Assembly (NCBI GenBank): GCA_964504845.1
Contig: CAZDGR010000004.1
Location: 1-38,194, forward strand
From: an uncultured Rhizobium sp.
GTDB lineage: Bacteria; Pseudomonadota; Alphaproteobacteria; SHVZ01
Direction of reading: 5' to 3'
DNA length: 38,194 nt
Positions 15,025 through 37,036 of the stretch are shown one piece after another; positions within the stretch are counted from its first letter, which is position 1; the number at the start of each line of letters is the position of its first letter. Position numbers and translations under genes: made by a program. The notes beneath the pieces were generated by a model. That model was not told the origin of the DNA and searched no databases. It saw only the letters and a program-made list of their open reading frames with translations.

Positions 15025-15028
15025 CGCG

Positions 15029-20706: not shown

Positions 20707-21420
20707 TCAACGATCGCGGGCCGGATGCCCCGACAGGGCGCGGCGCTCCCCTTCCGCAATCTCGCCTTCCGACATCTGCGTACGCAACAGATCCATGTTC
20801 TCTTCCGCCTCCGGCTGGCCCGATCCGGCGGCCAGCTTGAACCACGCATATGCCTCGACGGTGGAGCCTGCAGTCTCGCCCTCGGCGATCATCACCCCAA
20901 ATAGGTTCTGAGCATCGGGCAGGCCCGCTTCCGCCGCCAGCCGCAGCCAGTGGGTCGCCTTCTCGGGATCGGCGGGAACACCCATACCGTGCCGATAAGC
21001 CTCGCCCAGCTTCAGCATCGCCATGGGAAAGTCGCCGAGTGCAGACTTCTGATACCAGCTCACCGCTCCCGGAAAATCGACGAGGCCGCCTTCCCCTCTC
21101 TCGGCCAGCAGTCCCAGGTTGAAGGCGGCCGTGGCATTGCCGTGCCACGCTGCTCGCTCGAGCCACTGCTTGGCCAAGCCGATGTCGTGCGGCAGCCCGC
21201 CGAGCCCGACCAGGTACAGCCCGCCCAGATATGCCTGTGCGTCCGCGTCGTCCTGCTCGGCGAGCCTGCGGAGAAGCGGGACGGCAGCCGCGAAGTCGCT
21301 CCGCTGCATCATGGCCATCGCACGCGCCAGATCGTCCGCAGCCCCCGCCGGCGGCATCCCGAGGAGCAGCGCCAGACCGAGCAACGCCGTGACGACGACT
21401 GATCGGGACGACCGCATCAT
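20707..21420 (-). CDS. Sel1-repeat protein with N-terminal signal peptide
   Basis: Basic N-terminus, hydrophobic core and AGA cleavage-like site. Sel1 repeats AQAYLGGLYLVGLGG, AAFNLG, AMLKLGEAYRHGMGVPAD and AYAWFKLAA. Confidence 0.88.
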   Translation of the reverse strand: MMRSSRSVVVTALLGLALLLGMPPAGAADDLARAMAMMQRSDFAAAVPLLRRLAEQDDADAQAYLGGLYLVGLGGLPHDIGLAKQWLERAAWHGNATAAFNLGLLAERGEGGLVDFPGAVSWYQKSALGDFPMAMLKLGEAYRHGMGVPADPEKATHWLRLAAEAGLPDAQNLFGVMIAEGETAGSTVEAYAWFKLAAGSGQPEAEENMDLLRTQMSEGEIAEGERRALSGHPARDR

Positions 21421-21464: not shown

Positions 21465-23486
21465 TTAGCCCCCTTCCTCGGCCTGCTCAACCATCCAGCC
21501 ATACGCAGCCTCGAGCTTTCGCGCCATGTCATTGGCATCTGTCAGGGAAGAGCACGCCATCGCCGCCCGCAGCGAAGTCCGGAGGCCAGCCCGTCCGGCC
21601 TCGTCGGCGGCCAGCTTCACCGCGATCTCCCGATAGGACTCGACGTCCGAGGCGATGAGGTCGTCCGCTCCGACGGCACGGAGGATGGCAGCTGATTGCC
21701 GCTCGATGATCGACCGGCCTCGGAGGCTGACGACCGGAACGCCCATCCACAGCGCCTCGCACGTCGTCACTCCGCCAGTAAACGGAAACGGGTCGAGGGC
21801 GATGTCGATATCTCCATACTCGGCCAGCATGTCGTGGTGCGGCGAGGCGCCCGCAAGTTCCAGACGGTCCGGCGCGATGCCGTGTGCCTGAAACCGACGC
21901 CTCATGATCGCGGCGACCGACGGCTCCGTCATCGACCACCATTTCAGACGGAGTCGCGACTCCGGCAACTCCTTCATGATGCTCGCCCAAACCGCGATCA
22001 CCTCGTCGCCTATCTTGGGCGGATAGTTGAAACATCCGAAGCGAACCCAGCCGTTCCGCATGCCGGGTGGAGGCGCGGGCGCCGGTGCATCGGCCGGAGG
22101 GATGTAACAAAAACGTGGGCGGTTGAGCCGAAAGGGCTGTTCAGCGAGATGCTGGTCGGCACCTTCAGGCGAATGGTCGCCGTCGGTCAGGAACCAGTCG
22201 ATCGAGGCAAGACCGGTGGTAAAGAAGCTCTCGATCCAGGTCGCCTGAACACGGGCGGGGCGGCGGGCAAAGACGTCGAGGCGGTTCCCGGGCGTGTGGC
22301 CGGCAAGGTCCACCAGCACATCGACGCGGTCGCCACGGATCGCCTGTGCAGCGGCTTGGTCGCTCAGACCAGAGATGTCTCTGGTGCCCCGAAGCGCCGG
22401 CCCAAGATCCAGTGCGCCAGGCGTTCCTCGCCGCGCCTGAACGTAGGCAAAGACCTCCACGGCTTCCGGATCGTGCCGGGCGATGGCCGACAACCCGAGA
22501 TGCCTCGTGGACGCGAGTGTGAAGGTGGAAACATAGCCGATCCGCGGACGCGTCGCCGCCGGTCGTGCCGGATATCTCGCCGATACCGGCTTGCGGCTCC
22601 ACCACGCCCCCGCAGTCTTCGCTTGAGCGGCGCTCATCCCCGGCAGGTAAGCGAGCACCATCAGAAGATTTGAAAGAAACGTCGCCCTGCCGGGTTCGAT
22701 AGCCAGCGCGCGACGATGCGCTGTCGCGGCCGAGGAGGGTGAGACCGCCTCCTGGCTCGCATTACCGAAATTGGTGTGCGCCTCGCTGGAAGCCGGTTCG
22801 AGCACGAGCGCCCTGCGGGCCGCACGGGTCGCAGCCGTGAGACGCCCGAGGTCATGACTGGCCAGCGCCGTGTTCGACCAGGCCGCCGCGTGCAGGGGCC
22901 TGCACGACAGGCTGCGGGCGAAGGATCTGGCGCCGGCCGTGATGTCTCCATCATCATAGGCCAGACTGCCGGAACTGTTCAGGCCATCCGCATCGGCCGG
23001 AAAGCGCGCGACTGCTTGGCGCAGGATACGGCGCGCCTGCCTTCGATCGGTTCGGGCCAGGGCCAAGCCAAGCCGAAGCAGCCTTTCGGCGGCCGGATCG
23101 ATCGCCACCGCGCGACGCATCCAGTTGACCCGTTCCCGCTCGCCGCTCTGCGCGGCGCTCAGCAGATCCATGAGCGCCGGCATCACCGGCGCGATGGCAA
23201 GCGCCCGGGCCATCATTTTCGGCGTAGCCGCGTCGATCTCTGCCGCCGCGAGGCAGGTGTTGACCACCACGCGGACGTCACCCGGCGCCAAGGCTGAAGC
23301 GCGTGCAAGCAGACGGCTCGCCGACCGCGCGGTCCCGGCCGCCAGGTCCCGCGCCGCATAACCGTTCAGGGCATCGATGTCGGCCGGGCCGAGAGCGATC
23401 GCCTGTCGATACGCGGGCCGCGCGCCCTCGAGGTCGCCGGCCCGATGACGCGCGAGAGCCGAGGCGAGGGCAGAGGCGACGGTCAT
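21465..23486 (-). CDS. TPR-repeat GT41 glycosyltransferase (SPINDLY-like, atypical active-site loop)
   Basis: TPRs, SNLLMVL, RIGYVS (no HPV/HSV His after it), DLAGHT, FGCFNYPPKI and DPFPFTGGVTTCEALWMGVP. Confidence 0.88.
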   Translation of the reverse strand: MTVASALASALARHRAGDLEGARPAYRQAIALGPADIDALNGYAARDLAAGTARSASRLLARASALAPGDVRVVVNTCLAAAEIDAATPKMMARALAIAPVMPALMDLLSAAQSGERERVNWMRRAVAIDPAAERLLRLGLALARTDRRQARRILRQAVARFPADADGLNSSGSLAYDDGDITAGARSFARSLSCRPLHAAAWSNTALASHDLGRLTAATRAARRALVLEPASSEAHTNFGNASQEAVSPSSAATAHRRALAIEPGRATFLSNLLMVLAYLPGMSAAQAKTAGAWWSRKPVSARYPARPAATRPRIGYVSTFTLASTRHLGLSAIARHDPEAVEVFAYVQARRGTPGALDLGPALRGTRDISGLSDQAAAQAIRGDRVDVLVDLAGHTPGNRLDVFARRPARVQATWIESFFTTGLASIDWFLTDGDHSPEGADQHLAEQPFRLNRPRFCYIPPADAPAPAPPPGMRNGWVRFGCFNYPPKIGDEVIAVWASIMKELPESRLRLKWWSMTEPSVAAIMRRRFQAHGIAPDRLELAGASPHHDMLAEYGDIDIALDPFPFTGGVTTCEALWMGVPVVSLRGRSIIERQSAAILRAVGADDLIASDVESYREIAVKLAADEAGRAGLRTSLRAAMACSSLTDANDMARKLEAAYGWMVEQAEEGG

Positions 23487-23605
23487 GTCCGTTTGCGGAG
23501 GAGGAGTTGCTCGTTGGTGCGAGACGCGCTTGGGCTCGTAGCACGCCCCCCAGGAGGCGTCGATACCGCTTGTTCCTCGCCGGCAGCGCGGCTAAGTCGT
23601 CCTTC

Positions 23606-25444
23606 ATGCCGCCTTCCCCGCGTCCCGCGACCGGCACGCTTCTCCTGACGTTTCGCGTCGCGATCGCGCAGTCCCCGGCCGATATCGCTGCCCTCGTCGC
23701 TTTTGGCAGCCGGCTTGCGGATGCCGGAGATCCCGCCGTCTCGCGCCTCTGGATCGATCGCGCTTTGGCGACGTCGACCACGGAACCGGGTCTGTACGAG
23801 GCCGCGGCGGCCGTGACGCTGCGCACCGGCGATTTCTCGGCAGCATCTCAACGGCTGCGCCGGGTGCTGGCGTCCGACCCGCGCCACGTTTCCGGTCACC
23901 TCGCACTTGCGCGTGCCTATCACGCCCTGAGGCAACGGGAGAGTTGGCACCCGGCGGTCGGGCGCGCCGTCGCGCTGGACCCGCACTCGACCGAGAGCTG
24001 GCGCATCGCCTCGTCGCTGCTGCGTTCGTCCGGACGGCTGGCCGAGGCGCGCGCCACCGGCCGACGCGCCGCGAGCCTCTCTCCCGCCGATCCCGGTGCC
24101 CTGGTCGAGACGGCGCGAGCCGAGCACGCACTCGGCTTGGTTCCTGTGGCCGCGAACCGCATCGAACGCGCACTTGCCTGCGCGCCCGACAACGCCGACA
24201 ACGCCAACCTGTCGGCCCTGATCAATGCCTATGCCGGCCCCGTATCGCTTCTCGGAGCCGCGGTTCGCCGGCATGCCGTGCTCGCGCGGCGCTCACGGAC
24301 CCGTCCGCCGCCTTTGCATGATCCGCGCGCCGAGCGTCCGCTTCGGGTCGGCTACGTCTCGGCCGATCTCCACGACCATCCGGTTGGCCACACGCTGATC
24401 GGACTGATCGAAGGGCATGATCGCGAGCGCCAGTCCGTCTTCTGCTACGCTTCGGTATCGCAACCCGACTGGCTGACCGCACGCTTCCGAGCCGCCGCAA
24501 GCGCCTTCCGGCCTGTCTTCGGCCTGAGCGATGAGGCGTTGCGCAAGGTCATCGAAGCAGACCGTATCGACGTCCTGGTCCATGTCGCGGCGCGCTTCTC
24601 CGGAAATCGCCCGGGCCTGGCAGCCGTGCGAGCATCAGCCGTGCAGATCGCCATGTTCGACGTTACGTCGGCAGGGACCCGCGACATCGACGCGACCCTC
24701 TCTGATCGCGATCTGCATCCGACGGAGTCAGGCGAGTATTTTGCGGAACCGGTGCGGCTGCTGCCCGCTTCCTGCCTGTTCTCGCCGCCGCCCGCTCCCG
24801 ACATTCCGCCGCTGCCGGCGCGAGCGAGAGGTCATATTACTTTCGGGTCTGCCAACAATCCGGCGAAATGGTCCGCCGAGACGCTATCGCTCTGGGCAAG
24901 GATCCTCGATCGCTTGCCCGGCGCCAGGCTCTGGCTCAAGTTCTACGACCGTACCGGCGACGTCTCGACCGAAGCGGTCTTGCGCCAGCGCCTTTACGAG
25001 CATGGGCTGCCGCCTGACAGAGTGGACTTCGGCGCCGGCGCACTCACCAAGGTCGACCACCTGGCTGCGCTTGGGGCCGTCGATGTCGCCCTGGACCCGC
25101 ACCCTTTCGGCGGCGCGACGGCAAGCTTCGAGGCTCTCTGGATGGGCCTCCCGATCGTTACCCTCGCCGGAGATCGCCTGGTCGGCCGGACCAGCGCCAT
25201 GCTGCTCCGCCACGCCGGACTTTCCGATCTTGTCGCCGCGACACCCGCTGACTACGTCGATGTCGCCTGCCGGCTGGCAACCGACAATGGGCGGCTGCAA
25301 GAGTTGCGGCAGGTCCTACGGAAGCGCCTTGAAGCGTCACCGATCTTGGACCGTGCCGCCTACGTCGCGACCGTCGAGCGCGCCTATCGCGAGGCCTGGG
25401 CATCGGCCTGCGAGCGGCACCATCGCCTCCACATGTCGCGATAG
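23606..25444 (+). CDS. TPR-repeat GT41 glycosyltransferase (SPINDLY-like)
   Basis: GYVSADLHDHPVG, FGSANNPAKW and DPHPFGGATASFEALWMG. ATG 23606 chosen to avoid overlap with the divergent gene. Confidence 0.88.
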   Translation: MPPSPRPATGTLLLTFRVAIAQSPADIAALVAFGSRLADAGDPAVSRLWIDRALATSTTEPGLYEAAAAVTLRTGDFSAASQRLRRVLASDPRHVSGHLALARAYHALRQRESWHPAVGRAVALDPHSTESWRIASSLLRSSGRLAEARATGRRAASLSPADPGALVETARAEHALGLVPVAANRIERALACAPDNADNANLSALINAYAGPVSLLGAAVRRHAVLARRSRTRPPPLHDPRAERPLRVGYVSADLHDHPVGHTLIGLIEGHDRERQSVFCYASVSQPDWLTARFRAAASAFRPVFGLSDEALRKVIEADRIDVLVHVAARFSGNRPGLAAVRASAVQIAMFDVTSAGTRDIDATLSDRDLHPTESGEYFAEPVRLLPASCLFSPPPAPDIPPLPARARGHITFGSANNPAKWSAETLSLWARILDRLPGARLWLKFYDRTGDVSTEAVLRQRLYEHGLPPDRVDFGAGALTKVDHLAALGAVDVALDPHPFGGATASFEALWMGLPIVTLAGDRLVGRTSAMLLRHAGLSDLVAATPADYVDVACRLATDNGRLQELRQVLRKRLEASPILDRAAYVATVERAYREAWASACERHHRLHMSR

Positions 25445-27072
25445 GCCGTCTCGAAGTAGCCCGCCTGACTTTTCCCGTCGCAGAGCGGCGAGCTCCGCAT
25501 CCTTTCCCGCAGATCGAGGCGCAGCGCCGCAAGCTTTCCGAGATCGCGCGCGACCGAGGCGGCGATTGACCCGAACTCAGCCGGCGTCCGTGCGACGAAC
25601 TCGCCCAGACCCAGGCGATCCATGACCGCGTAGCCGACACGCCCGGCGAACCGCTCTCCAAGCAGCGTGATGACGGGAACGCCCATCCACAGCGCTTCGA
25701 AGCTGGAGGTCCATCCGCCGAACGGAAACGGATCCAGCGCGATGTCGATGTCGTTCCAGAGAGCAAGCTGCTCGGTCCGCGTATGGTCGCCTCCGCCGAA
25801 CACGATACGGTCGGCGCTCACGCCCTCTGCGGCGAACATGCCGAGGACGCGCCGCTGCACCGATGCGTCGGCATACCAGTCGACGTACTTGAGTCCAATC
25901 CGCGAAGCAGGCACGGCGCGCAGCGCCGCTGCCCAGGCAGAGATGGTGGTCGGCGTCAGTTTCGCTGGATTGCTGAAGGAACCGAAAGTGACACGCCCAG
26001 TCCTGAGCGCCGGCAAAGGCTGGACCGGCGGAGCCTGGTCGTCCGGCGGTTGCAGGAAGAAGCACGGCAGGCGAGCTACCGTTTCGGTGAACCGTTCACT
26101 CCAGCCTTGCCCGTCAGCGGGGTGGAGGCGGGGGTCCGATATCCAGTAATCGACAACCTCCAGACCGCTGGTCGACACGTCGTCCAGGCTCACCTGGATC
26201 GGCGCCGGTCGGTGCGCGGTCACCAGCAGGCGATTGTGCGCGCTGTGGCCACCGACGACGACCAAGATGTCGACACCGTCGGTTCTTATCTGTTTGGCGA
26301 GTTCCTCGTCCGATAGGCCGGCGACCTGACGCCACACCGCGCTTCGGCTTCGGCAGCGTTCGGTGAGATCGTCCGAGAAGCGGATCGAAGCATAGGCGTT
26401 GACCTGAACGAGCTGCGGATCGTGGTTCTCGAGCAGTTCGACCAGGATGCGACCGAGCGGATGGTCGCGAAAGTCTTGAGACACGTATCCCACGACGATC
26501 CTGCGCTCGGGATCGACCGAGTTGGCGTGGCGCCGATCCGCCCGATAGAGCGGCCGGGCGTAGAGGTCTTCCCAGCGGCGATACTCGGCGAACAACGCCT
26601 CACTCGTGAGGCGGTCGTCGTAGCTCATGGTGAAGAGAAGGTTGCTGTGCAGGGCGCTGGTCGGCGCGATGGCGATGGTACGCCGGTAGGCGAGGAGCGA
26701 CTCCTCTACGAAGCCGCCGGCCTTGAGAGCCTGGGCCGTGTTGTTGTGGGCCGTCTGATCGGCCGGAATCATCGCCAGCGTCCGGCGCCCGATGCGGATT
26801 GCCGGCTCCACGAGCCCGTAGCGGGACAAGGTGCCTGCAAGGTTTCCGAAGATCATCGTGTTGTACGCATCTCGTGCCAGCGCCCTGCCATAGGCGGTGG
26901 TTGCGGCGACGAGGTCGAAGCGAAGGTCGGCGAGGACCCCCATCAGGTTTAGGATGGCCGGCTCCTGCGGCGCATCCGCCAGCGCCCGGCGCGCCCAGGT
27001 CTCCGCGCCGGCGATATCGCCATTGCGATGATGCTCCTCCGCCTTGAGAAACGGATCGACGGCTGCGGTCAT
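25384..27072 (-). CDS. TPR-repeat GT41 glycosyltransferase (SPINDLY-like)
   Basis: ATG 27072 overlaps the upstream TGA. Motifs HSNLLF, GYVSQDFRDHPLG, FGSFSNPAKL and DPFPFGGWTSSFEALWMGVP. Confidence 0.9.
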   Translation of the reverse strand: MTAAVDPFLKAEEHHRNGDIAGAETWARRALADAPQEPAILNLMGVLADLRFDLVAATTAYGRALARDAYNTMIFGNLAGTLSRYGLVEPAIRIGRRTLAMIPADQTAHNNTAQALKAGGFVEESLLAYRRTIAIAPTSALHSNLLFTMSYDDRLTSEALFAEYRRWEDLYARPLYRADRRHANSVDPERRIVVGYVSQDFRDHPLGRILVELLENHDPQLVQVNAYASIRFSDDLTERCRSRSAVWRQVAGLSDEELAKQIRTDGVDILVVVGGHSAHNRLLVTAHRPAPIQVSLDDVSTSGLEVVDYWISDPRLHPADGQGWSERFTETVARLPCFFLQPPDDQAPPVQPLPALRTGRVTFGSFSNPAKLTPTTISAWAAALRAVPASRIGLKYVDWYADASVQRRVLGMFAAEGVSADRIVFGGGDHTRTEQLALWNDIDIALDPFPFGGWTSSFEALWMGVPVITLLGERFAGRVGYAVMDRLGLGEFVARTPAEFGSIAASVARDLGKLAALRLDLRERMRSSPLCDGKSQAGYFETAYRDMWRRWCRSQADAQASR

Positions 27073-28453
27073 GCGCGCACGGCCTCTTTCGCCATTGAAA
27101 CCAATTCCCGCTCCACCTCGGCAGCGACCGCCTGCCAATCGTCCGCGCGAGGCTGACGGACCAGCCGCATCGTCGGGTACCAGGGCGTATCCGAACGGTC
27201 GAGCATCCACCGCCAGTCCGCCGGGGTCGGCTCATCGGTCACCCGCATGGCCACGAATTGGACATCCCGTATCCCGCAGAGGCGGTCGAGAGCCTCGAGG
27301 GGAAAGGAGCGCCGCCGGTCGTCCCGATGGGCCGGATTCCCCTGCCAGCAAAGCCCTATGCGCAACGCCCGTGCGGCGCCGAGGCGTTCCCGCCATGCGC
27401 GGCGGCCGGCAACCTGCGGCGCCGGGTCAGGAGTGGCGGCGGGAACGGTTTCCGCTGTCGTACCGAACAGTCCCGGCAAGCTCGTCAGTCGGCAATTCCT
27501 GTCGTGATCCAGCACGTTCTCATCCGAGACAACGACATCCGCCACGACATCCAGCGTCTTCAGAAGGCGCACGGGTCGAGCCTGAACCGGAAGGATCGTT
27601 CGGAGACCCCGTCGCGCAGCGAGCTGGGCATAGCGGCAGAACTGGACTGTATCCCTGAGCTCCTGCTTGGCAAAAAGGAGGGGCGTCTTGCCGGAGGCGG
27701 CCTCACCTCGCAATCGCCGATGGCGGGGCGGGCGGGGCGCCTGCGCGCCCGGCACATCGAAGCGGGCCTCCGCATCAGGCCAAGCCTCTGCAGGCCTACC
27801 GGCGAGCAGCCGTGCGACCGCCCGAATCCAGGCCGCATGGGGAAAGCAGGAGTGAGTCGCCAGGGCGCGGTCGGTCCACTTCTCCGCAGCCGGGAGCGTC
27901 CGGCGCGTACTTCGAAAATGGCGTTATTGTTCAGGCTCTCCGACTGCGCCGGCTGAAGTGCGAGCGCCTTCCAGTTCTCGCGTCCCCCTTCGTCGAGCCG
28001 GTCCTCGCGTCTGAGACCGATCCCGAAGTTGCCGCGGGCCGGTGGATCCTGATCATCCCGTGCAAACGCGCGATCGAGCCACATCCGCTCGGTGGCGAAA
28101 TCGTCTTCGCCGACCGTCGTCGAGATCGAGGCCGCATAGAGTCCTGACATTGGCTCCAGGGCAAGCGGGCGCCGCAGGAGCCGCGCCGCCGTCGGTTTGT
28201 CCGCGCGATCGATGCAGACCCCCGCAAACGCAGCCAGGTGAACCGGCGACGTTGGCACGATCGCGACGCTCCGCCCGAGCCAGCGGACCGGGCCGTCTTC
28301 CTCGCCGGAACCTTTGAGCGCGACGCCCATGAGATGCAGCGCTACACCGTCGGAAGGGAGCCCCACCAGATGATGGCGGGCAAGGCGGACAGCGGCCGGG
28401 ACCTGGCCCCGTTGCAGGGCTTCGACTGCCAATGCGAGTTGGGGGTCAAGCAA
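27069..28453 (-). pseudogene. Pseudogenised TPR + GT9-like glycosyltransferase
   Basis: The TPR N-half (LDPQLALAVEALQRG...) and the GT9 C-half lie in different frames, with the shift near 27885-27900. EQGLGD has decayed to KQELRD. The DFxDTAA..LDLVIxVDT..HLAGAxG block present in both paralogs is missing before DWRW (junction near 27219-27240). Confidence 0.8.
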
Positions 28454-30008
28454 AGCGCGCTCGCAGGTCGTCGGCAACCCGCCGCGCCACCGACAGCCAG
28501 GATTCGTCCGGAGCGCGGCGCAGCAGGCGTGCACCGGGGTACCATGGCGTGTCCTCGCGATAACGCAGCCAGCGCCATGCCGGGTTTGGCGCCAACAGTA
28601 TCCACAGCGGACTCCCCATCGCCCCTGCCAGATGCGCGACGGACGTCTCCACTGAGATGACCAGGTCAAGCTCGGAGATCGCCGCCGCCGTGTCGGCAAA
28701 ATCCTCGAACTCCTCACCGACAGCCAGCAGACCGGGCCGATCGACGGGCAGGACGGAGCCCTTCTGCAGCGACACGAACGACAGGCCTTCCAGCGCCAGG
28801 ATCGGCTCCAGGTCGGAGAGCTGGCACGACCGCTTCTGGTCGAAACCGCTTCCCGGATTGCCGGCCCAGCAGAGGCCGATACGCGGCCGACGCGCAAGCG
28901 CAAGGCGTCGGGCCCAAGCAGCCTTGAGCTCGGGCGGTGGCCGGAGGTGGGGCGTAGGCGGCGGTACCGTATCGACCGTGGTCGCAAACAGGGCGGGCAG
29001 GCTCTCCATCGGCAGGTACTGGTCGTAGGTTCCCGGAGGTGGCGGCGCCGCTCCGCGCTCGATCACGCGGTCGGTGCCCGCGTAGCCGTCAAGCAGGCGG
29101 CGAAGGCCGGACTTCACCTCAAGCGTGAGGGCGCCGACCCGGGCGCGGGCCAGGGGGATATAGCGGAGGAAGTTGAAGACGTCTCCATAACCGATCTCGT
29201 CATGCACGAGCAGGCGTCCGGGGAATGGCGCGCCATTCCATCGCGGCGCGGAAAGCTCATGGGGATATGCCCGCTGAACCTCGAACCGGACGTCGAAGTC
29301 GCTGAAGCCTTGCTGCCAGTCGCCTTGCCCAAGAAGGGTCAAGGTCCGGTTCCAGCGCGCCTTGGGATGACGCGGCTCGATGGCGACGGCGCGGCCCGCA
29401 GCGACGACCGCCGTATCCCGGTCGCGGCGCTCTTCGAAGATTCCGCCTAGGTTCAACCAACCCTCGAATATCGCCGGCGCGAGAGCGACCGCGCGGCGAG
29501 TACAGGTGAGGCCATAGGCCCAGTCATCGTCTTCGACAGCTGCCCGACCACGGTTGATCCAGGCAAGCGGCTGGTGCGGATCGGCGGCGAGGACCGCATC
29601 GAGGATAGTCCGCGCACCGGCGACAGCGCCCCGATCGAGCAATACCGCCGCCAGGCTGGTCGCCAGGCCCAAATCGGCGGGTTCGATCGCCATGGCGCGC
29701 TGGAGGCTGGGTACCGCTGCGACCCGCTCTCGCGATCCGCGCTCGAGCCAGGCCGGCATATAGGCAGGGTCCAGCGCCAGGGAGCGCCTCAGCGCCCGCC
29801 GCGACTTCCCGTCCACGGGTGCCGCGACCGCAAACGCGAATTGAACGCCGGCATCGTCGATGGTCGCATTCGAGCGATCGAGCCAGAAGGACGCCGCCGC
29901 TTCGCCTCGCCTGAAGGCGGCAAGCCCGAGATCCACGAGAGCTTGAGCTGAAGAAGGAGTTTCCACCAGCTGCCGCCGGACCGCGGAATCGTCACCGGGG
30001 CCGCTCAT
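28446..30008 (-). CDS. TPR-repeat + GT9-like glycosyltransferase
   Basis: TPRs, EIGYGDVFNFLRY, IGLCWAGNP, DFADTAAAISELDLVISVETSVAHLAGAMG and WRW...TPWYPGARLLR. Confidence 0.88.
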   Translation of the reverse strand: MSGPGDDSAVRRQLVETPSSAQALVDLGLAAFRRGEAAASFWLDRSNATIDDAGVQFAFAVAAPVDGKSRRALRRSLALDPAYMPAWLERGSRERVAAVPSLQRAMAIEPADLGLATSLAAVLLDRGAVAGARTILDAVLAADPHQPLAWINRGRAAVEDDDWAYGLTCTRRAVALAPAIFEGWLNLGGIFEERRDRDTAVVAAGRAVAIEPRHPKARWNRTLTLLGQGDWQQGFSDFDVRFEVQRAYPHELSAPRWNGAPFPGRLLVHDEIGYGDVFNFLRYIPLARARVGALTLEVKSGLRRLLDGYAGTDRVIERGAAPPPPGTYDQYLPMESLPALFATTVDTVPPPTPHLRPPPELKAAWARRLALARRPRIGLCWAGNPGSGFDQKRSCQLSDLEPILALEGLSFVSLQKGSVLPVDRPGLLAVGEEFEDFADTAAAISELDLVISVETSVAHLAGAMGSPLWILLAPNPAWRWLRYREDTPWYPGARLLRRAPDESWLSVARRVADDLRARFA

Positions 30009-30068
30009 CGATCTCGTGCCGCCGCTCGCATCCGTGACCGATCCGCTTTGTTCAGCGTAACCCCGACT

Positions 30069-32735
30069 CTATGCCTTGGAGGAATGAGTCGCCACGTCCG
30101 CGGGAGCGGGAAATTTCAGTTCCGCGGGTGGAGCGATCCTTCCATGACATTCCTTGAACCGCTGACCCGATCCGCACGGGCACATCTGCAGGCGCTTGAC
30201 GCGGATGACCGGCTCCGGCGCGCGCGCTCCCGGATTTTCCGCCGGGGGTGTCCGATCGGGAACAAGCCTGGAAATCGACCGAGCGACGCTCTTGCTGATC
30301 TCGCCCAGCATCTCCTCGAAGAAGCTGTAGGCCTCCTTCTTGTATTCTTGCAGAGGCACCAGCATCGCGGCCCCCCGGAGCGCCACGCCGAAACGAAGGT
30401 GCTCGAGAGAGGCAAGCTGATGGCGCCAGCACTGGTCGAGGGCCGTCATCACGACATATCGAGTTACCCGAGGCCGCTCTTTCGGATCGAAGGCTTCAAG
30501 CCGCTGCCGCCAAAGGTCGGCGACGCACACTTCGAGCCGCTGCAGAATCTCCTCGTCCGCGATTCCTTCCTCGGCCGCCCATTCGTCCACGGGAACAATC
30601 AGGTTGAACAGGTCCAGCAGATCGGCCTTAAGGCCGGCCAGATCCCACTGCTCGGCATAGGCGGTCGGCGGTATCCGCGCGGCCACCATCTTGGCCATCA
30701 CCTCGGTCCGCATCGCGACCAGCCGATGATCGAGGTCCTCGTCTGCCAAAATCTCCCGGCGCAGGCCGTAGATGAGCTTTCGCTGCTCATTGGCCACGTC
30801 GTCGAAGTCGAGAAGGCGCATGCGGCTGTCGAGCATCATCTCCTCGACCGTGCCCTGGGCCTTTCGGATGGCGCGGGTCAGCCACGAATGGAACATCGCG
30901 GCCCCCTGGTCGAGACCAATCTTGTCCAGCCGGCGCCGAAGCCGATCGGCGCCGCCAAAGATGCGGATCAGCTCGTCGTCGAGGGAAAGCATGAAAACGG
31001 ACTCGCCGGGATCCCCCTGGCGGCCGGCGCGGCCGATCAGCTGATCGTCGATGCGGCGGCAATGAAAGCGCTCGGTGCCCATGATCAACAGGCCGCCGGC
31101 AGCGCGGGCGGCCTGACGCGCCTCGGTGACCTCGCGGGTAACAGTCTCGGTCACCCGCCGGATCTCCTCCGGATCGCTCAAGCCTGCCGTTGCCTGCGCT
31201 ATCCGGAAAGCGACGTTTCCTCCGAGCTGGATGTCGGTGCCACGGCCGGCCATGTTGGTTGCGACGGTCACTGCTCCCGGGCGGCCGGCTTCGGCAATGA
31301 TTTCAGCCTCGCGCTCGTGGTGTCGGGCGTTGAGCACCTCATGGACGATGCCATGCCGCGAGAGCTCGGCGGACAAGGTCTCCGACTGGCCGACCGACGT
31401 GGTCCCGATCAGGATCGGCTGCCCCCGCGCGTGCCGCTCTTTCGTGCGCACGACAATTGCTGCGATCTTCTCCACCGCCGTCCGATAGACCTCGTCCTCG
31501 CTGTCGATGCGGATCATCGGCTGGTTGGTGGGGATCTCGACGACCGAGAGCCCATAGATCCGCCGATACTCCTCGGCGTCCATGGAAGCGGTGCCGGTCA
31601 TGCCGGCGATCCGCCGATAAAGACGGAAATAGTTCTGATAGGTCGTCTGGGCGACCGTGTTTCCCTGGTTGCGGAGCGGTAGCCCTTCCTTGGCCTCAAG
31701 TGCTTCGTGCAGACCGTCACCCAGGCGCCGGCCTGAGAGCATGCGGCCCCGCAATTCGTCGACGATCACAACGTCGCCGTCCTTGACGATATAGTCCTTG
31801 TCGCGCCGATAGATATTACGGGCATGCAACGCCTGACTCACGACCTGCACAAGCCAGAGGTTCTCGTGGTCGTAGAGGTGCCCTTGCTTGATGAGACCGG
31901 CCGTTTGCAATAGCTGTTCGATCTGGTCTATGCCGTCTTCGGTCAGCTGGACCTTGCGCTGCTTCTCGTCGATGTCGAGGTTATCGGGGTCAAGCCGCTG
32001 GACCAATCGGTCGACTTCATAACAGGCATTGGAGGTCTCCTGAGACGGCGTCATGATCTCGATCGGCATTCGAGCTTCATCGATCAGAACGGAGTCGACT
32101 TCGTCGATGATGGCATAGTCGAGACCCCGCTGGGTCATCTCCTCCAGGGAGTTCTTGAGGTTGTCCCGCAGGTAGTCGAAGGCGAACTCGGTGTGAACGC
32201 CGTAGATGATGTCGGCCTGATAGGCTCGCTTGCGGGCTTCCATCTCCATCCCGCTGGTAAGGCTGGCGACCTCGAGCCCGAGAAAACGATAAACCGCGCC
32301 CATCCACTCCGCGTCGCGCTTGGCGAGGTAGTCGTTCACGGTGACGACATGAACGCCCTTGCCGGCCAGCGTGTTGAGGAAGGCCGGCATGGTCGCCGCC
32401 AGCGTCTTGCCTTCGCCGGTCCTCATCTCGGCGACATGACCTTGGTGAAGCGCGATGCCGCCCATGACCTGGACGTCGAACGGACGCTGACCAAGAACGC
32501 GCTTCGCGGTCTCGCGCACGACAGCGAAGGCGTCGACCAGCAGATCGTCCAGAGGCGCGCCGTCTGCCGCACGCTGCTTCAGGGACAGTCCTGTTGCGCG
32601 CAGTTCGTCGTCTGACATCGCCGAGAGCGCCGGCTCCCTCGCCGCGACCTCACGGCAAAGCCGAGCGATCTCGCGGCGCGAGGTGGCAGTTGAGAGGCGG
32701 CGAATTCCGTCGCCGATGACTTTGAGAGCTTTCAT
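30069..32735 (-). CDS. secA: Preprotein translocase ATPase SecA, divergent accessory paralog (SecA2-like)
   Basis: MRTGEGKT, VVTVNDYLAKRD, FDYLRDN, DEVDSVLIDEAR, GMTGTA, ATNMAGRGTDI, GRQGDPG, IRA1 region and C-terminal SEC-C CPCGSGQRFKECHG. ATG 32735 is the likely start. Confidence 0.95.
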   Translation of the reverse strand: MKALKVIGDGIRRLSTATSRREIARLCREVAAREPALSAMSDDELRATGLSLKQRAADGAPLDDLLVDAFAVVRETAKRVLGQRPFDVQVMGGIALHQGHVAEMRTGEGKTLAATMPAFLNTLAGKGVHVVTVNDYLAKRDAEWMGAVYRFLGLEVASLTSGMEMEARKRAYQADIIYGVHTEFAFDYLRDNLKNSLEEMTQRGLDYAIIDEVDSVLIDEARMPIEIMTPSQETSNACYEVDRLVQRLDPDNLDIDEKQRKVQLTEDGIDQIEQLLQTAGLIKQGHLYDHENLWLVQVVSQALHARNIYRRDKDYIVKDGDVVIVDELRGRMLSGRRLGDGLHEALEAKEGLPLRNQGNTVAQTTYQNYFRLYRRIAGMTGTASMDAEEYRRIYGLSVVEIPTNQPMIRIDSEDEVYRTAVEKIAAIVVRTKERHARGQPILIGTTSVGQSETLSAELSRHGIVHEVLNARHHEREAEIIAEAGRPGAVTVATNMAGRGTDIQLGGNVAFRIAQATAGLSDPEEIRRVTETVTREVTEARQAARAAGGLLIMGTERFHCRRIDDQLIGRAGRQGDPGESVFMLSLDDELIRIFGGADRLRRRLDKIGLDQGAAMFHSWLTRAIRKAQGTVEEMMLDSRMRLLDFDDVANEQRKLIYGLRREILADEDLDHRLVAMRTEVMAKMVAARIPPTAYAEQWDLAGLKADLLDLFNLIVPVDEWAAEEGIADEEILQRLEVCVADLWRQRLEAFDPKERPRVTRYVVMTALDQCWRHQLASLEHLRFGVALRGAAMLVPLQEYKKEAYSFFEEMLGEISKSVARSISRLVPDRTPPAENPGARAPEPVIRVKRLQMCPCGSGQRFKECHGRIAPPAELKFPAPADVATHSSKA

Positions 32736-32828
32736 GATCGACCCGACCTTTGCGACGCCTTCCAAGTGAGCACGACAAAACGCCGCACCGGCCAAAGCGC
32801 ACCCCGCCTGGGAGATGGTGTGAAAATC

Positions 32829-33224
32829 TCAGGCATTCACGATATCGCCGTAGTTCTTTTCTTCGAGGATGCTTGAACCGAGGCGGTCGTCGATGCGCCG
32901 CTTGATCTGCGCACGCTCGCGGTTGAGGTCGAACGCCCGCAGGCACAGTTCCGCTAGGCGGCCGTCGACGGGCCCGTGCCTGCGGCTTTCATAGACCCTG
33001 TCAGTCAGTATCCAGATCTCGTCATTGATCTGCTCGAGTTCAATACACAAGCGACGGAGATCATCATCCAGGCTCAGAGCCCGGTTCTGCACTTGCTTCA
33101 GACGATCCAGTTCGGAAGTAACATTGGCCCGTTTCGACGCTTCGACCAGTCGTCTTTGCTTTATTTCGAGTATTGTAATGCGGTCTAGGAGCTCTCCCGG
33201 GGAGATCTCGATTTGAACTAGCAT
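32829..33224 (-). CDS. DUF6165-like small helical protein
   Basis: IEISPGELLDRITILEIK...INDEIWILTD...NRERAQIKRRID...SSILEEKNY matches the DUF6165 pattern as I recall it. This family is often found beside TPR-glycosyltransferases. Confidence 0.78.
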   Translation of the reverse strand: MLVQIEISPGELLDRITILEIKQRRLVEASKRANVTSELDRLKQVQNRALSLDDDLRRLCIELEQINDEIWILTDRVYESRRHGPVDGRLAELCLRAFDLNRERAQIKRRIDDRLGSSILEEKNYGDIVNA

Positions 33225-33323
33225 TCGCGGCCCTCTGAGTGTCAATCTGCTGGTACCATCCCCCCAGAGGTGCGTTCAAGAGAGCGTTCGTCGCTTCCGG
33301 CGCGCAGGAACGGGTAGTATTTT

Positions 33324-34406
33324 ATGTCGTCTGCTTCACGCTCTCCGCGACCGCTTCGCGTCGCGGTGGCCGGCCTCGGTTTCGGTTACGCTGTACATCT
33401 TCCGAGTTGGCTTGGCCAGACGGGGATCGAAGTCGTCGGGATCGCCTCGAGACGTCGTGACAAGGCCACCGAGCTAGCTAGCCGACACGGGATCTCCGTG
33501 GCAACGGATGACATCACCGAGCTTCTGTCACTCGAACCCGACATCTTCTCGCTCGCCCTTCCGCCCGACGTCGCCGCGGCCGCCGCCCGTCAGGCTCTGG
33601 AACGCGGAGTTGCCATCATCAGCGAGAAGCCAATTGCCGGCACATTCAACGAAGCGGCGGCGCTGGCCGCCCTCGCAGGCAACCGGACCACGGCAGTCAA
33701 TTTCAGCTTTTCCGAACTCGACACGTTCCAGACGCTCCGACGGCATCTTGCCTCGAACGAATTCGGGGCGCCAATCAGCGCGGACCTGACGTGGCGGACC
33801 GAGTCCTATGCCCACAAGCATCGGATCTGGAGTTGGAAGACGGACCTCCAGCGCTTTGGCGGCGTAATCACCAGCTTCGCCAGTCACGTGACCCACCTGG
33901 TCGAGTGGCTCCTAGGGCCGGTACGCATGCTCGAGGCGTCCCTCGATGACCGACGTACCCGCGCCTTCGCACCGCCCGGTACAAAGCCCGCCTGGGATCA
34001 AGCGGAGATCCTGCTGCATCACCACAACAATGCCGTCTTCCGGGCGGTACTCGACAACGCAGCCCCCGGCGAGGACGTCCACGAGTGGAACATCCGCTGC
34101 GCGGCAGGGAGCTACCGCCTCGTCAAGCATGGGCCGGGTATCATGACCGGGCTGGTGCTCTACCGCATAGGACCAGACGGCACTGAGGAAGTCGTCACCC
34201 AAGACCGCCATCAGGACAGCGCCGGGGGCCGTGTCCTGCCGTTCCGGCGGCTGCTCGATCGTTTCGTCGGCGCCGTTCGAGCCGAGGGCACGTGCGAACC
34301 TAGCTTTGCACATGGCTGCCGCGTCCAGTATCTGATGGCAAAGATCGAAGCCTCCGCCTCTGCTACTTCCGCCCTAGCGTGCGATGACGTCGTTCTCAGC
34401 GCCTGA
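33324..34406 (+). CDS. Gfo/Idh/MocA family NAD(P)-dependent oxidoreductase
   Basis: Rossmann VAVAGLGFG, EKP motif and GGVITSFASH. Confidence 0.88.
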   Translation: MSSASRSPRPLRVAVAGLGFGYAVHLPSWLGQTGIEVVGIASRRRDKATELASRHGISVATDDITELLSLEPDIFSLALPPDVAAAAARQALERGVAIISEKPIAGTFNEAAALAALAGNRTTAVNFSFSELDTFQTLRRHLASNEFGAPISADLTWRTESYAHKHRIWSWKTDLQRFGGVITSFASHVTHLVEWLLGPVRMLEASLDDRRTRAFAPPGTKPAWDQAEILLHHHNNAVFRAVLDNAAPGEDVHEWNIRCAAGSYRLVKHGPGIMTGLVLYRIGPDGTEEVVTQDRHQDSAGGRVLPFRRLLDRFVGAVRAEGTCEPSFAHGCRVQYLMAKIEASASATSALACDDVVLSA

Positions 34407-35019
34407 TCAGAACTATTTCCTCGCGCTCGCCGACTATTCGCGCGACTTCACCGCGCGTCTCGGCCTCGACAGCGAAGCTCAGCCCCTGGATCAGCTGCTG
34501 GGCGAGTTGAAGCCGCGCCTCGAGGGAATGCGCGACGCCGAGACCGCGATTATCGGTTCAATCCCTCAAACGATGGCTCGCCGTTCGCGCGACGACGCGC
34601 GGGCGATCGGACTCAATACAGTGAGCTTGCTTGCCGACAGGCTTACGATCCTTATCGTCAAGGAGTGGAACCTGCGCGAGCGCGGCGCCAATCCGGCCGG
34701 CGCCGATGTCCTGGCCCAGTCCGAGATTCCGGAGATCTGCCGAGCCCTTTCCCAGGTGGAGCCGGACCAAGCCCTCTATATCGGCAAGCTTTCCAAAATC
34801 CGTGCCGGCGCCATGGCGGCAACCTGGGCCGAGGCCTATTACGGGCTCCTGACCGCAAACCTTCTGCTCTGGGAAGCCCAGGAGATCCTCTACCGGCGCG
34901 ACATCCTGGAACTGCCGGCCGACGAGGTCCGCTCCTACATCCGCTGGTTCTCGCTCGGCAACATGTTGCGGAACGAGTACATGGCGCTCTGCGAGCAGCT
35001 GTTCTGGCACCGATCCTAA
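34384..35019 (+). CDS. Hypothetical helical protein with DUF6165/DUF4254-like motifs
   Basis: TVSLLADRLTILIVKEW...ANLLLWEAQE...NMLRNEYM. Overlaps the oxidoreductase stop region and ends just before the GT41 gene. Confidence 0.65.
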   Translation: MTSFSAPDQNYFLALADYSRDFTARLGLDSEAQPLDQLLGELKPRLEGMRDAETAIIGSIPQTMARRSRDDARAIGLNTVSLLADRLTILIVKEWNLRERGANPAGADVLAQSEIPEICRALSQVEPDQALYIGKLSKIRAGAMAATWAEAYYGLLTANLLLWEAQEILYRRDILELPADEVRSYIRWFSLGNMLRNEYMALCEQLFWHRS

Positions 35020-35032: not shown

Positions 35033-37036
35033 GTGAGCGTGACCAGGCCGGGCTTCGAGGCGGATGAGGAAAGATCGGAGTCCCTTCTCCGCCAGGCCGT
35101 CGGTGCCGGCATGGCGGGTGATCACGCGCGTGCCTCGCGCCTGATCACCGCCTCCCTCGCACTGGTACCCGACCGCGGCGAGCTCTGGGCCAACTTGGCG
35201 ATCGCCGCGCGATCCGTCGGAGAAGCCGCCCGGCCAGAAGTCTGCGCCCGCCGCGCGCTGACGCTTCGTGCCGATCGTCATGAGATCTGGGCGCTGCTGG
35301 CCGACATCCTTACACCGTCGAATCCCGAAGGAGCGCGCAAGGCCTGCCGAACCGTCCTTGCACTCGAACCGCTTCATGCAACGACATGGACCAATCTGGC
35401 ACTGCTCTTACGCCAGCAGTCCCACCGGAGCGGGACTCTCGCCTACAGCCGTCGCGCGATCACCATCGACACAGCGAGTGTCGAGAACTGGAACAATTTC
35501 GGTCTCGCGCTAACCGATCTCGGCAGGCTGGGCGAGGCTAGAGCAGCCTTCGAGGTCGGCATCTCAATCGACGGCCGCCTTGCCTCGCCACACGCGAACC
35601 TGGCCAACATCCTGGTCAACAGCGCCCATGTCGAGGAGGGATTGGCTAGCTATCGTCGGGCGATCGCACTTGATCCGCACCACGCGGAAGGTCTCAACGG
35701 CCTTGCCGGCGGGCTCAAGGATCAGAGCCTGACCGAGCTCGCGACCATGATCGCGCGCTCGGCGATGGCCTGTGATCCCGTCAGCATTGCCGCGGCCAAG
35801 ACCTACCTGGCGTGTCTGCTTCATCTGCCTGGCCTCTCGCCGGCTCGCCTGTATGACGAGCACCGGCGCGTCGTGGGCAGCTTCGAGACGGAAATCCAGC
35901 CGCTGCCCGCGAGCCCTAACACCCGTGATAAGACGCGCCGTCTGGTCGTCGGCTATGTCTCGTCCGATCTGCGTGGCCACCCTGTCGCTCGATATCTGAA
36001 GGCGGCTTTCGAGTATCGGAATACCGAGCGGATTCGCGTGATCGTCTACTCCGACGTGCGGGCCGAGGATGCGGAAACGGCATGGTATCGTTCGAGGACC
36101 GATCTCTGGCGTGACGTGCAGGGCCTTCGTGACGACGCGGTGGGCAAGCTCGTACGCGCTGACGGCGTCGATATCTTGGTCGTCCCTGCCGCTCACTTTG
36201 ACGACAACCGTCTTCTGCTCGCGGCCCATGGCGCGGCCCCTATCCAGATCTCCGCCTTCGCAGGAACTACGACGGGAGTCTTGCGCTCCACCCACTGGCT
36301 TACCGACGCTGTGCTTCATCCCGACGGAATTGCCGAGCGCTTCACCGAAACGCTGCAGCGGCTGCCGGTTCTTCATTTCTTTCGGCCGCCGGCCGGGGAT
36401 CCACCGATCGTGGAGCCACCGATGAGAACCAAAGGGTTTGTGACCTTCGGCTGTTTCGTCAGTCCGGCCCGTATCAATCCCACCGTGATCCGTTCATGGT
36501 CGCGCATCCTGGCGCGGCTGCCGACGGCGAAGCTGGTGCTCAAGAACCGGACCGCTTACCGCAACAGAGAGATCCAGTCCCGCTATCGCCGGCTGTTCGA
36601 ATCCGCCGGCGGCGACTTCGATCGCGTACAGCTGATGACGTCGGACGACAGCCGCTACGATCACCAGAAACGCTACAACGACATCGACATCGTCCTGGAT
36701 ACCTTTCCCTTCACCGGTGCCTCGGCGAGTTTCGATGCGTTGTGGATGGGCGTGCCGGTCATCACACTATCCGGGTGGGGCTTCGTGCAGCGGATGACGG
36801 AATCCCTTCACGTGCCGCTGGGACTCGAGGAGCTGGTGGCGGGGACCACGGACGAGTACGAGGAACTAGCCGTATCCCTCGCGCATGATCCGGTCCGATT
36901 GCTCGCGCTCAGGCAAGATCTCCGTCAGCGAATTGCAGGATCCATCCTGTGCGACGGCCCGGCCTACGCGCGGTCTCTCGAGGCGGCCTATCGTGCTATA
37001 TGGGAGCGGTGGTGCGAGGCGGCGCCGATCTGCTAG
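35033..37036 (+). CDS. TPR-repeat GT41 glycosyltransferase (SPINDLY-like)
   Basis: TPRs, GYVSSDLRGHPVA, FGCFVSPARI and DTFPFTGASASFDALWMGVP. Confidence 0.9.
   Translation: MSVTRPGFEADEERSESLLRQAVGAGMAGDHARASRLITASLALVPDRGELWANLAIAARSVGEAARPEVCARRALTLRADRHEIWALLADILTPSNPEGARKACRTVLALEPLHATTWTNLALLLRQQSHRSGTLAYSRRAITIDTASVENWNNFGLALTDLGRLGEARAAFEVGISIDGRLASPHANLANILVNSAHVEEGLASYRRAIALDPHHAEGLNGLAGGLKDQSLTELATMIARSAMACDPVSIAAAKTYLACLLHLPGLSPARLYDEHRRVVGSFETEIQPLPASPNTRDKTRRLVVGYVSSDLRGHPVARYLKAAFEYRNTERIRVIVYSDVRAEDAETAWYRSRTDLWRDVQGLRDDAVGKLVRADGVDILVVPAAHFDDNRLLLAAHGAAPIQISAFAGTTTGVLRSTHWLTDAVLHPDGIAERFTETLQRLPVLHFFRPPAGDPPIVEPPMRTKGFVTFGCFVSPARINPTVIRSWSRILARLPTAKLVLKNRTAYRNREIQSRYRRLFESAGGDFDRVQLMTSDDSRYDHQKRYNDIDIVLDTFPFTGASASFDALWMGVPVITLSGWGFVQRMTESLHVPLGLEELVAGTTDEYEELAVSLAHDPVRLLALRQDLRQRIAGSILCDGPAYARSLEAAYRAIWERWCEAAPIC

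Follow-up and report, generated by a model that had tools for sequence, protein, structure and literature searches.

A plasmid-borne SecA paralog in an alphaproteobacterial lineage and its glycosyltransferase neighbourhood

SecA2 systems are textbook Gram-positive biology, and the occurrence of a divergent secA gene in a run of glycosyltransferase genes of an alphaproteobacterium raises the question of whether a second export motor operates in a Gram-negative lineage. The gene in question (30069-32735, minus strand) lies on contig C4 of the metagenome-assembled genome (MAG) G000, the complete sequence of which (38,194 bp) was analyzed and is called the window below. In the initial annotation, its product, here named SecA2, was taken to be a substrate-specialised motor using the SecYEG of the host, as in the SecA2-only systems of Mycobacterium and Listeria. 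Genome G000 (561 contigs, 90.9% complete, 4.3% contamination) was compared with its sister genomes G001 (79% complete) and G002 (91% complete) and with the metagenome locus L101, as well as with an order-level set of 12 genomes and an evenly drawn class-level sample of 400 other genomes.

Paralogy, distribution and age of SecA2

The secA2 gene encodes a protein of 888 aa carrying six Pfam SecA domains. The open frame extends over 30069-32795 (minus strand), up to a TTG at 32795, and the start was placed at the ATG at 32735 by N-terminal alignment with other SecAs. Matches were obtained with SecA_DEAD (PF07517, 367 bits), P-loop_SecA (PF21090, 265 bits), SecA_SW (PF07516, 161.6 bits), SecA_PP_bind (PF01043, 108 bits), DEAD and SEC-C (PF02810, 27.4 bits against a cut-off of 20.4). 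The SecA_SW match covers profile positions 3-198 of 200.

SecA2 is not the only SecA of its genome. At the edge of contig C170 of G000, a canonical SecA (MFGALARRLFGTVNDR...) is truncated by the end of the contig after its first 170 residues. Over 157 residues from its start, this fragment is 91-93% identical to the canonical SecAs of the sister genomes, and it is 52.6% identical to SecA2; the remainder of this canonical gene was not found in the G000 assembly. Both secA genes are present at full length in G002 (on C5 and C175), and G001 carries the paralog on C2 and a canonical fragment on C326. Only canonical SecA was detected in seven other genomes of the order (in one case as a C-terminal fragment), and no SecA match was obtained in G005 and G007, so that the paralog occurs in three of the 12 genomes. 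Its absence from the other nine shows no more than that SecA2 is dispensable for the lineage. A search with the SecY profile PF00344 gave a single match each in G001 and G002, which corresponds to a SecA2-only layout, and no assembled SecY in G000.

The distribution of the paralog is narrow. At the class level, it was identified in none of the 400 genomes sampled (E <= 1e-290, two first-look candidates being scored per genome). A search of 5.8 billion clustered proteins yielded nine close clusters, one 96% identical to SecA2 (P0002), four at 77-81% (P0003-P0006) and four at 60-64% (P0007-P0010), after which the identity drops to 51% or less, the level of ordinary alphaproteobacterial SecAs. 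In a similarity search of genome contigs, 593 relatives were retrieved, and none of the best 80 (38-55% identity) falls in the paralog clade. The clade-specific pattern CRRID[DN]QLIGR was found at one locus among metagenome contigs, L101, which shows the same gene order and probably comes from the same lineage as the G000 paralog. Among 147 records obtained by tblastn against the PLSDB plasmids, no match reached 60% identity, and the best ones are secA genes of the ordinary type, located on chromids or else on mislabelled chromosomes.

A maximum likelihood tree (IQ-TREE quick search, LG+G4, 899 columns, 77 rows) was built from 12 paralogs, 12 canonical SecAs (eight from the host genus and family, three from other relatives in the class and one from G002), 17 SecAs from the loci of the contig search, with outgroups among them, and every third protein of the clustered-protein match list. 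The 12 paralog rows form a single clade (SH-aLRT 100), the stem of which measures 0.87 substitutions per site. Its sister group (support 89) comprises 57 canonical alphaproteobacterial rows; the canonical SecAs of the host genus nest deep within the canonical group, outside the paralog clade. The exact attachment point may have been affected by the long branch. Wherever it lies, the tree indicates that SecA2 did not arise by recent duplication of the host gene.

The secA2 frame is open in G000, G001, G002 and L101. Between the orthologs of G000, G001 and G002, the dN/dS ratios (Nei-Gojobori) amount to 0.07-0.13 in secA2, as compared with 0.10-0.19 in the canonical secA of the genus and 0.13-0.18 in the neighbouring genes. 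The initial annotation had considered that the gene might be a recent duplicate under relaxed selection; the separate 12-row clade, the length of its stem and the low ratios speak against this. Judging from the sequences, SecA2 is a real, old, selectively maintained and plasmid-borne SecA paralog in a Gram-negative lineage. As regards the plasmid itself, the dS values between G000 and G002 are 0.9-1.0 in plasmid genes and about a quarter of this in the chromosomal secA fragment (0.24), which suggests that the plasmid lineages do not simply co-diverge with their hosts.

The window stretch was detected in 14 DNA runs from eight studies (word share of at least 0.42), one of which may be the source sample, from riverine, freshwater, subsurface, aquatic and wastewater habitats. 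Seven contig pieces from RNA libraries (149-345 nt, 0-2 mismatches) fall inside secA2 (30371-32627) and come from four metatranscriptome libraries of three studies, which is consistent with secA2 being transcribed. On the issue of expression raised in the initial annotation, these pieces fit transcription but are no proof of it, as they are assembled contigs and carry-over of DNA is possible. Shorter pieces (35-40 nt, 2-4 mismatches) correspond to conserved motifs of the secA of other organisms. The cover outside secA2 is almost nil, which is no evidence of silence.

Sequence changes and relation to known SecA proteins

SecA2 exceeds both NCBIfam equivalog cut-offs for SecA (NF009538, 1019.5 against 814; TIGR00963, 911.6 against 800), scoring about 280 and 210 bits, respectively, under the SecA of the host genus. 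It falls below the cut-offs of the models for the accessory SecA2 of streptococci and staphylococci (TIGR03714, 676 against 930), the mycobacterial SecA2 (TIGR04221, 551.1 against 725, the canonical SecA of the host reaching 607.6) and those of Listeria (NF012136, 550.1 against 1100) and Bacillus anthracis (TIGR04397, 768.5 against 1085), and the canonical SecA of the host outscores it on all four. The nearest solved structure is that of Escherichia coli SecA (about 739 bits), followed by the SecA2 proteins of Clostridioides difficile (598 bits) and Mycobacterium tuberculosis (381 bits). The protein is thus a SecA2 by the logic of the genome, yet its scores place it outside every known SecA2 family. 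The parallel with Mycobacterium and Listeria initially drawn holds as far as the second SecA and the single SecY are concerned, and does not extend to membership of any of the four SecA2 models.

The amino acid sequences of the clade were compared with those of 65 canonical SecA rows, columns conserved in at least 95% of these rows being regarded as near-invariant; residue numbers are those of E. coli SecA, obtained by pairwise alignment. The clade retains the canonical residue in 217 of the 290 near-invariant columns; in 48, it is replaced in at least 80% of the members, and the other 25 are mixed. The replacements that are invariant within the clade include L223I, I224E, S226M, Y236C, T340R, Q355E, E368Q, S564C, R572I and M595I. 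The four divergent strings singled out in the initial annotation (YGVHTEFAFD, DEARMPIEI, RFHCRRIDDQLIGR and GAAMLVP) are all present in the translation and do fall on columns conserved at this level, the substitutions within them being N179H, G183A, T221M, L223I, I224E, S226M, H562F, E563H, S564C, N569D, R572I, Y794A, Q796M and D798V. The replacements are spread across all the domains: they affect three of the four conserved columns of the N-terminus, where the FG..NDR motif is altered, 23% of those of the wing and scaffold, 21% in the PPXD, 11-14% in NBD1 and 14% in NBD2. That many of the 48 replacements are held invariant within the clade is characteristic of a function that has shifted and yet been maintained.

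The residues kept in SecA2 include Walker A K108, D209 and E210 of the DEVD motif, R509, R565 and R566, R574, R577 and the Cys and His ligands of the zinc finger. We take the catalytic ones among them (the Walker A Lys, the DEVD Walker B and the Arg residues of motifs V and VI) to have their usual roles, and with the catalytic motifs and zinc ligands kept, SecA2 would be expected to be an active ATPase. Both alignment and Pfam bear out the earlier observation that the Walker motifs and the SEC-C zinc finger, the docking site of SecB, are preserved; the CPCGSG...CHG motif of this finger does not vary among the clade sequences. All 12 members have Ile instead of R572. At position 794, presumably the tip of the two-helix finger that contacts the moving chain, the clade shows Thr in four cases, Ala in three, Tyr in two and Ser, Leu and Ile in one each, and the following Asp (D798) is replaced by Val or Ile.

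The clade also carries about 20 extra residues past the zinc finger (the last ~20 codons of secA2, 30069-30140, minus strand), whereas the canonical rows end directly after the finger. This tail ends with HSS[KNM]A in eight of the 10 distinct clade sequences, including HSSKA in the window protein, and with HSS in one more. By analogy with EEVD or SKL tails, one idea would be that the HSSKA tail docks on a tetratricopeptide repeat (TPR) domain. A complex prediction combining residues 829-888 of SecA2 with the 520-aa TPR protein encoded by the next gene gave a score of 0.00, which, having no controls, is uninformative either way.

SecA2 shares with the canonical proteobacterial SecA (E. coli; PDB 2fsf, 2vda, 6gox and 6s0k) the six-domain architecture, Walker A and B, R509 and the SEC-C zinc finger. 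Unlike the canonical protein, from which it differs by the 48 replaced columns (45% identity to E. coli SecA and about 51% to that of the host genus), it has a tail of about 20 aa and an altered FG..NDR motif, and it is plasmid-borne and non-universal. According to the portion of PMC4452313 covered here, secondary SecA_DEAD proteins occur in Planctomycetes, Verrucomicrobia and some Proteobacteria, including some Alphaproteobacteria; these proteins are without all or most of SecA_SW and have neighbours resembling type I secretion genes. SecA2 differs from them in having a full SecA_SW, a SEC-C domain and glycosyltransferase neighbours, and neither HlyD nor OEP genes were detected in the window.

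Candidate partners and a possible export route

The secA2 gene belongs to a co-oriented run on the minus strand. It is preceded by a DUF6165 gene (32829-33245, 138 aa), which matches PF19662 (33.1 bits, cut-off 27) and has DUF6165 proteins as its nearest clusters in the protein-language-model (ESM) atlas. The spacing initially described was confirmed, with 93 nt between the DUF6165 stop (32829) and the ATG of secA2 and 60 nt between the secA2 stop (30069) and the next start (30008). Downstream are a gene for a TPR protein of 520 aa with a GT9-like C-terminal half (28446-30008), a TPR-GT9-like pseudogene (27096-28453) and a gene for a TPR-GT41 glycosyltransferase of 608 aa (25384-27210; PF13844, 120.5 bits), the last one of the run, which stops at 25384, where a convergent TPR-GT41 gene (23303-25444, plus strand) begins. 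G001, G002 and L101 share the order DUF6165-secA2-TPR-GT9-TPR-GT9-TPR-GT41. A promoter and terminator scan of 25000-33600 gave no excess over shuffled sequences (1 against 0.9 and 5 against 5.5), and a weak hairpin between DUF6165 and secA2 (32801-32784) is not above chance level. As stated in the initial annotation, no secY2 or asp genes are found among the annotated genes of the window.

The co-oriented run as first described stands, pseudogene included, but the GT9 label of the 520-aa protein reflects similarity to paralogs only. This protein shows TPR matches and no GT9 match of its own in Pfam. The label comes from its 34-35% identity to paralogs, among them the product of an intact 514-aa TPR-GT9-like gene of G001 (34% over the full length), and the paralogs have weak GT9 matches themselves (22.9 and 30.1 bits). 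Its orthologs in G001, G002 and L101 are 73-77% identical. The TPR-GT9-like gene that follows is intact (514 aa) in G001, G002 and L101 and is decaying in G000 alone: it shows a frame change near 27815-27896 and an internal deletion of 47 aa in the catalytic half, tblastn with the intact G001 gene splits it into two pieces in different frames, and its dN is 0.25-0.42 versus 0.12-0.18 in its neighbours, at a similar dS. The orthologs of the 608-aa TPR-GT41 protein are 82-83% identical (dN/dS 0.13).

DUF6165 was identified in 29 of 201 sampled genomes of the class (one of the genomes counted, G051, is unpublished), and a second copy is present elsewhere in G000. At 13 loci of other genomes, its neighbours include a GT9 gene in three cases, a TPR protein in one and a flagellin with a sulfotransferase in one (among L135, L137, L138, L140 and L143), which suggests that DUF6165 may be an accessory factor or partner of GT9-type enzymes. 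The secA2 gene lies inside such a DUF6165-GT9 module. The view of DUF6165 as a partner specific to SecA2 was rejected, in view of its presence in 29 of 201 genomes of the class, as against none of 400 for SecA2, and of its recurrence beside GT9 genes.

The window is, by its gene content, one contig of a RepA/ParA plasmid. The initial annotation had not recognised this plasmid context, nor did it include the SecB paralog, the type II secretion system and the candidate cargo, which are encoded by other contigs. It encodes a RepA replication protein (37041-38048, minus strand; RepA_C, 115.7 bits), which is 96% identical in G001 and G002 and has its nearest PLSDB relatives on Roseomonas, Azospirillum and Tistrella plasmids (43-47%), and a ParA-type partition ATPase (5513-6193, minus strand; AAA_31, CbiA, MipZ and ParA matches), which is 90% identical in G001. 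In G002, the same island is carried with RepA and ParA by the 110-kb contig C175, in which no end overlap was found, so that the circle is not closed; the orthologous plasmid pieces in G000 are contigs C5, C58, C177 and C196. Genes of a type II secretion system (T2SS) encoding GspD (the secretin), GspE, GspF and GspG are located on the same plasmid (G002:C175:1021-11177, and C58 and C177 in G000), and no signal peptidase I gene was found on the plasmid contigs. The plasmid also encodes a SecB paralog (G000:C58:2601-3014, minus strand; G002:C175:20822-21235, plus strand; G001:C1:2683-3099, minus strand), which is 32% identical to the chromosomal SecB and scores above the Pfam cut-off and below every NCBIfam SecB cut-off.

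The main candidate cargo, P0123 (G000:C5:8873-10249; G002:C175:93474-94838, 469 aa), is a secreted protein with a Ser and Thr content of 31%. The protein begins with a signal peptide of 36 residues, the hydrophobic core of which is long and Gly/Thr-rich; Thr, Ser, Ala and Gly are abundant in the remaining part of about 420 residues. Its orthologs (87-88% identity) are present in exactly the three genomes carrying SecA2, where it is surrounded by TPR-GT41, GT61 and GT17-TPR genes. The family, which is unnamed, comprises 45 representatives, mostly of about 450 aa. An AlphaFold2 model based on 33 family members is all-beta and Ig-like (pLDDT 86.9, pTM 0.77), and a Foldseek search with it retrieved only generic tandem Ig-like domains of surface adhesins (TM <= 0.27) and no specific family. 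In the ESM atlas, the clusters nearest P0123 carry the S-layer family Slr4 (PF19526) in 10-16% of their members, which serves as a lead only: P0123 itself gives no match at E <= 10, its homolog from the related genome G004 gives E = 0.66, and two of the 33 family members reach E <= 0.01 (best 3.8e-4). The likeness of P0123 to Slr4 would therefore be marginal at best. P0123 resembles Slr4 in being a predicted all-beta surface protein with a Sec signal peptide and in its linkage to gsp genes, which adjoin it in G004 and share its contig in G002. In the part of PMC7821379 covered here, Slr4 is described beside a dedicated type II operon and with a Sec signal peptide, and no SecA2 is reported for it there. 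Another secreted protein of the plasmid, P0122 (G000:C5:23394-24179; L119:3394-4179), has 261 aa, a signal peptide, a duplicated WWS.S.PGR.Y..EV motif and no family, and is encoded among TPR-GT41 genes.

In the light of these data, SecA2 is very probably a functional accessory SecA. On the route that we propose, plasmid-encoded preproteins with Sec signals, chiefly P0123, would be glycosylated in the cytoplasm by the TPR-GT41 and TPR-GT9 enzymes and possibly kept export-competent by the plasmid SecB paralog, docking on the retained SEC-C zinc finger. SecA2 would then drive them by ATP hydrolysis through the single SecYEG of the host, and the plasmid T2SS would move the cargo across the outer membrane. 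The changes in the N-terminus, the PPXD stem, motif VI (R572I), the scaffold helix and the finger tip, together with the HSSKA tail, may adapt the motor to its cargo and partners. That the whole chain forms an export route of the SecA2-only type, evolved independently and serving glycoproteins encoded by the plasmid, with the substrate and the mechanism as proposed, is in our view about evenly balanced between right and wrong.

This route has counterparts in Gram-positive bacteria. The SecA2-only systems (C. difficile SlpA, PDB 6sxh and 6t4h; Listeria; mycobacteria, PDB 4uaq) likewise combine a second SecA with a single SecY, and the window SecA2, like theirs, is found among candidate surface-protein and glycosylation genes. 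Unlike them, it is of independent origin, branching with the alphaproteobacterial SecAs, it keeps the helical wing and the zinc-finger tail, and it is encoded by a plasmid together with a SecB paralog; moreover, the host is diderm, so that a type II system would be needed after the inner-membrane step. The accessory Sec systems of streptococci and staphylococci (SecA2, SecY2, Asp and Gtf proteins), which serve serine-rich-repeat glycoproteins, resemble the present locus in that a SecA paralog is linked to cytoplasmic glycosyltransferases and a Ser/Thr-rich surface protein. They differ from it in having GtfA and GtfB instead of TPR-GT41 and TPR-GT9 enzymes, in the SecY2 and Asp genes, which were not found here, and in their cargo, a giant serine-rich-repeat adhesin rather than a 450-aa Ig-like protein. 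Part of this parallel is also to be found in PMC4452313, to the extent that it is covered here, and according to the covered part of PMC7821379, the S-layer proteins of C. difficile and B. anthracis are exported via SecA2.

Several findings weigh against the proposed route. The partners exist without SecA2: genome G004 (88% complete), in which SecA2 was not found, carries a related RepA (78%), a SecB paralog and a P0123 homolog (49% identity) directly adjoining gspE and gspF, and the T2SS, the SecB paralog and the P0123 homolog likewise occur in related plasmids of G004 and G009, so that the rest of the system can do without this motor. The SecB paralog has a wider distribution than SecA2, being present in eight of the 12 order-level genomes, among them relatives in which SecA2 was not found. 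The Maf, nonulosonate and TPR-glycosyltransferase genes could serve flagellin glycosylation instead; several genes for flagellins of about 280 aa are present in the genus, and flagellins are exported via the flagellar apparatus and not via Sec. The variable finger tip could mean a relaxed rather than an adapted translocation function. No co-variation ties SecA2 to a particular substrate, and the glycosyltransferase link covers one genus-level lineage of a clade that also comprises the distant members P0007-P0010 (60-64% identity). Lastly, G000 is without an assembled SecY and most of the canonical secA because the MAG is incomplete.

The same data can be read in other ways. SecA2, with the SecB paralog, might be an unspecialised general-capacity or back-up motor raising the Sec throughput for all the plasmid products (secretin, pseudopilins and surface protein). 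Its scores above both canonical equivalog cut-offs, the retention of all the domains and catalytic residues and the occurrence of ordinary secA genes on PLSDB plasmids and chromids would fit this explanation. A spare SecA should, however, resemble the canonical one, whereas here 48 near-invariant columns were replaced and then fixed, a new conserved tail was acquired, the stem reached a length of 0.87, and the gene lies within a glycosyltransferase operon and not beside the secretion genes, all of which makes such a back-up role rather unlikely. Somewhat less likely still is that SecA2 does not translocate at all and acts as a cytoplasmic holdase or scaffold presenting chains to the TPR-glycosyltransferases, perhaps via the HSSKA tail, with the housekeeping SecA carrying out the export. 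The position of secA2 between DUF6165 and TPR-GT9-like genes, the existence of the DUF6165-GT9 pairing without SecA (three of 13 loci), the clade-specific tail, the loss or variability of the finger-tip Tyr and the replacement of D798 are compatible with this, as is the spirochaete second SecA fused to TPR repeats (PMC4452313, in the portion covered). The fact that the motor, PPXD, scaffold and wing, and zinc finger are under purifying selection equal to that of the canonical gene exceeds what a holdase would need. As a side observation, the spirochaete protein, from Treponema azotonutricium, is possibly an independent link of accessory SecAs to TPR domains (PMC4452313, same portion).

The explanation that the gene is a decaying duplicate, or the housekeeping secA of a contaminant binned into the MAG, is largely refuted and very improbable. 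It could draw on the fragmentation and contamination of G000, the reduction of its canonical secA to a 170-aa fragment and the pseudogene adjacent to secA2. Against it are the open frame in three genomes and L101 with the low dN/dS, the RepA and ParA genes on the contig itself, the binning of the island in three MAGs of one genus and the presence of both complete genes in G002. Decay at this locus takes the form seen in the adjacent pseudogene (frameshift, deletion and raised dN).

If the proposed route is correct, it would represent the first case of an accessory Sec pathway in Gram-negative bacteria, a self-contained, plasmid-borne line leading from TPR-GT41/TPR-GT9 glycosylation via SecB2 and SecA2, SecYEG and a dedicated T2SS to a surface, possibly S-layer, protein; this we put forward tentatively, as less probable than the route as such. 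In the literature covered on SecA2 in Alphaproteobacteria, Gram-negative type II secretion and S-layer glycosylation, which consists mostly of titles and openings of abstracts, no full-length accessory SecA of a proteobacterium was found, and the supplementary genome tables of PMC4452313 may add alphaproteobacterial cases. The Gram-negative second SecAs in the covered part of that paper are only truncated SecA_DEAD proteins linked to type I secretion. The likeness of the pathway to the Gram-positive routes that use SecA2 for S-layer and serine-rich-repeat glycoproteins would be due to convergence, and the remodelled two-helix finger and PPXD stem and the HSSKA tail would be adaptations for handling glycosylated chains or coupling to them. 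With its 48 fixed replacements, the clade would provide a natural test of how a SecA motor is re-tuned for special cargo, and of whether glycosylated chains pass a standard SecYEG. It would also be a case of a mobile element bringing its own inner-membrane targeting factors along with the cargo, the decoration enzymes and the outer-membrane secretion system. Apart from its function, the gene is labelled plain 'SecA' by automated annotation, which means that surveys using secA as a single-copy marker miscount in such lineages.

Other genes of the plasmid island

The genes around the secA2 run were assigned on the basis of Pfam matches and synteny. Upstream of the DUF6165 gene, on the plus strand, are genes for a GFO/IDH/MocA oxidoreductase (33324-34406), a 211-aa protein (34384-35019) and a TPR-GT41 protein (35033-37036), all three syntenic in G001 and G002. 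Beyond the convergent TPR-GT41 gene at the other end of the run, the minus strand carries genes for TPR-GT41 (21465-23486) and TPR-GT9 (18729-20849) proteins, an open reading frame of unknown family (17461-18882) and a GT1-like gene (15565-17454). The plus strand carries an integrase gene (7684-8766), a GT4 gene (8895-10097), a TPR-GT41 gene (9914-12322) and genes for PP-loop ATPase-like, HisH, HisF and GNAT proteins (12276-15568), and the beginning of the window is occupied by a Maf glycosyltransferase gene (395-2587, plus strand) and a further TPR-GT41 gene (2594-4579, minus strand). The PP-loop, HisH, HisF and GNAT set and Maf are typical of nonulosonic-acid modification and flagellin glycosylation. 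A crude hydropathy scan detected a signal peptide or a clear membrane helix in none of the proteins of the window.

The window contains a total of six TPR-GT41 genes and of two intact and one broken TPR-GT9-like genes, and synteny with G001 and G002 extends over the entire island, with amino acid identities of 60-96%. NeuB, CMP-transferase and aminotransferase genes are located on other plasmid contigs. Contig C175 of G002 carries 13 genes with a GT41 match and genes for nine further TPR proteins (one with a GT9 match, and three corresponding to genes of the island), as well as three Maf genes, GT61, GT4, NeuB and two CMP-sugar synthetase-like genes. Such an expansion of TPR-glycosyltransferases on one replicon is extraordinary.

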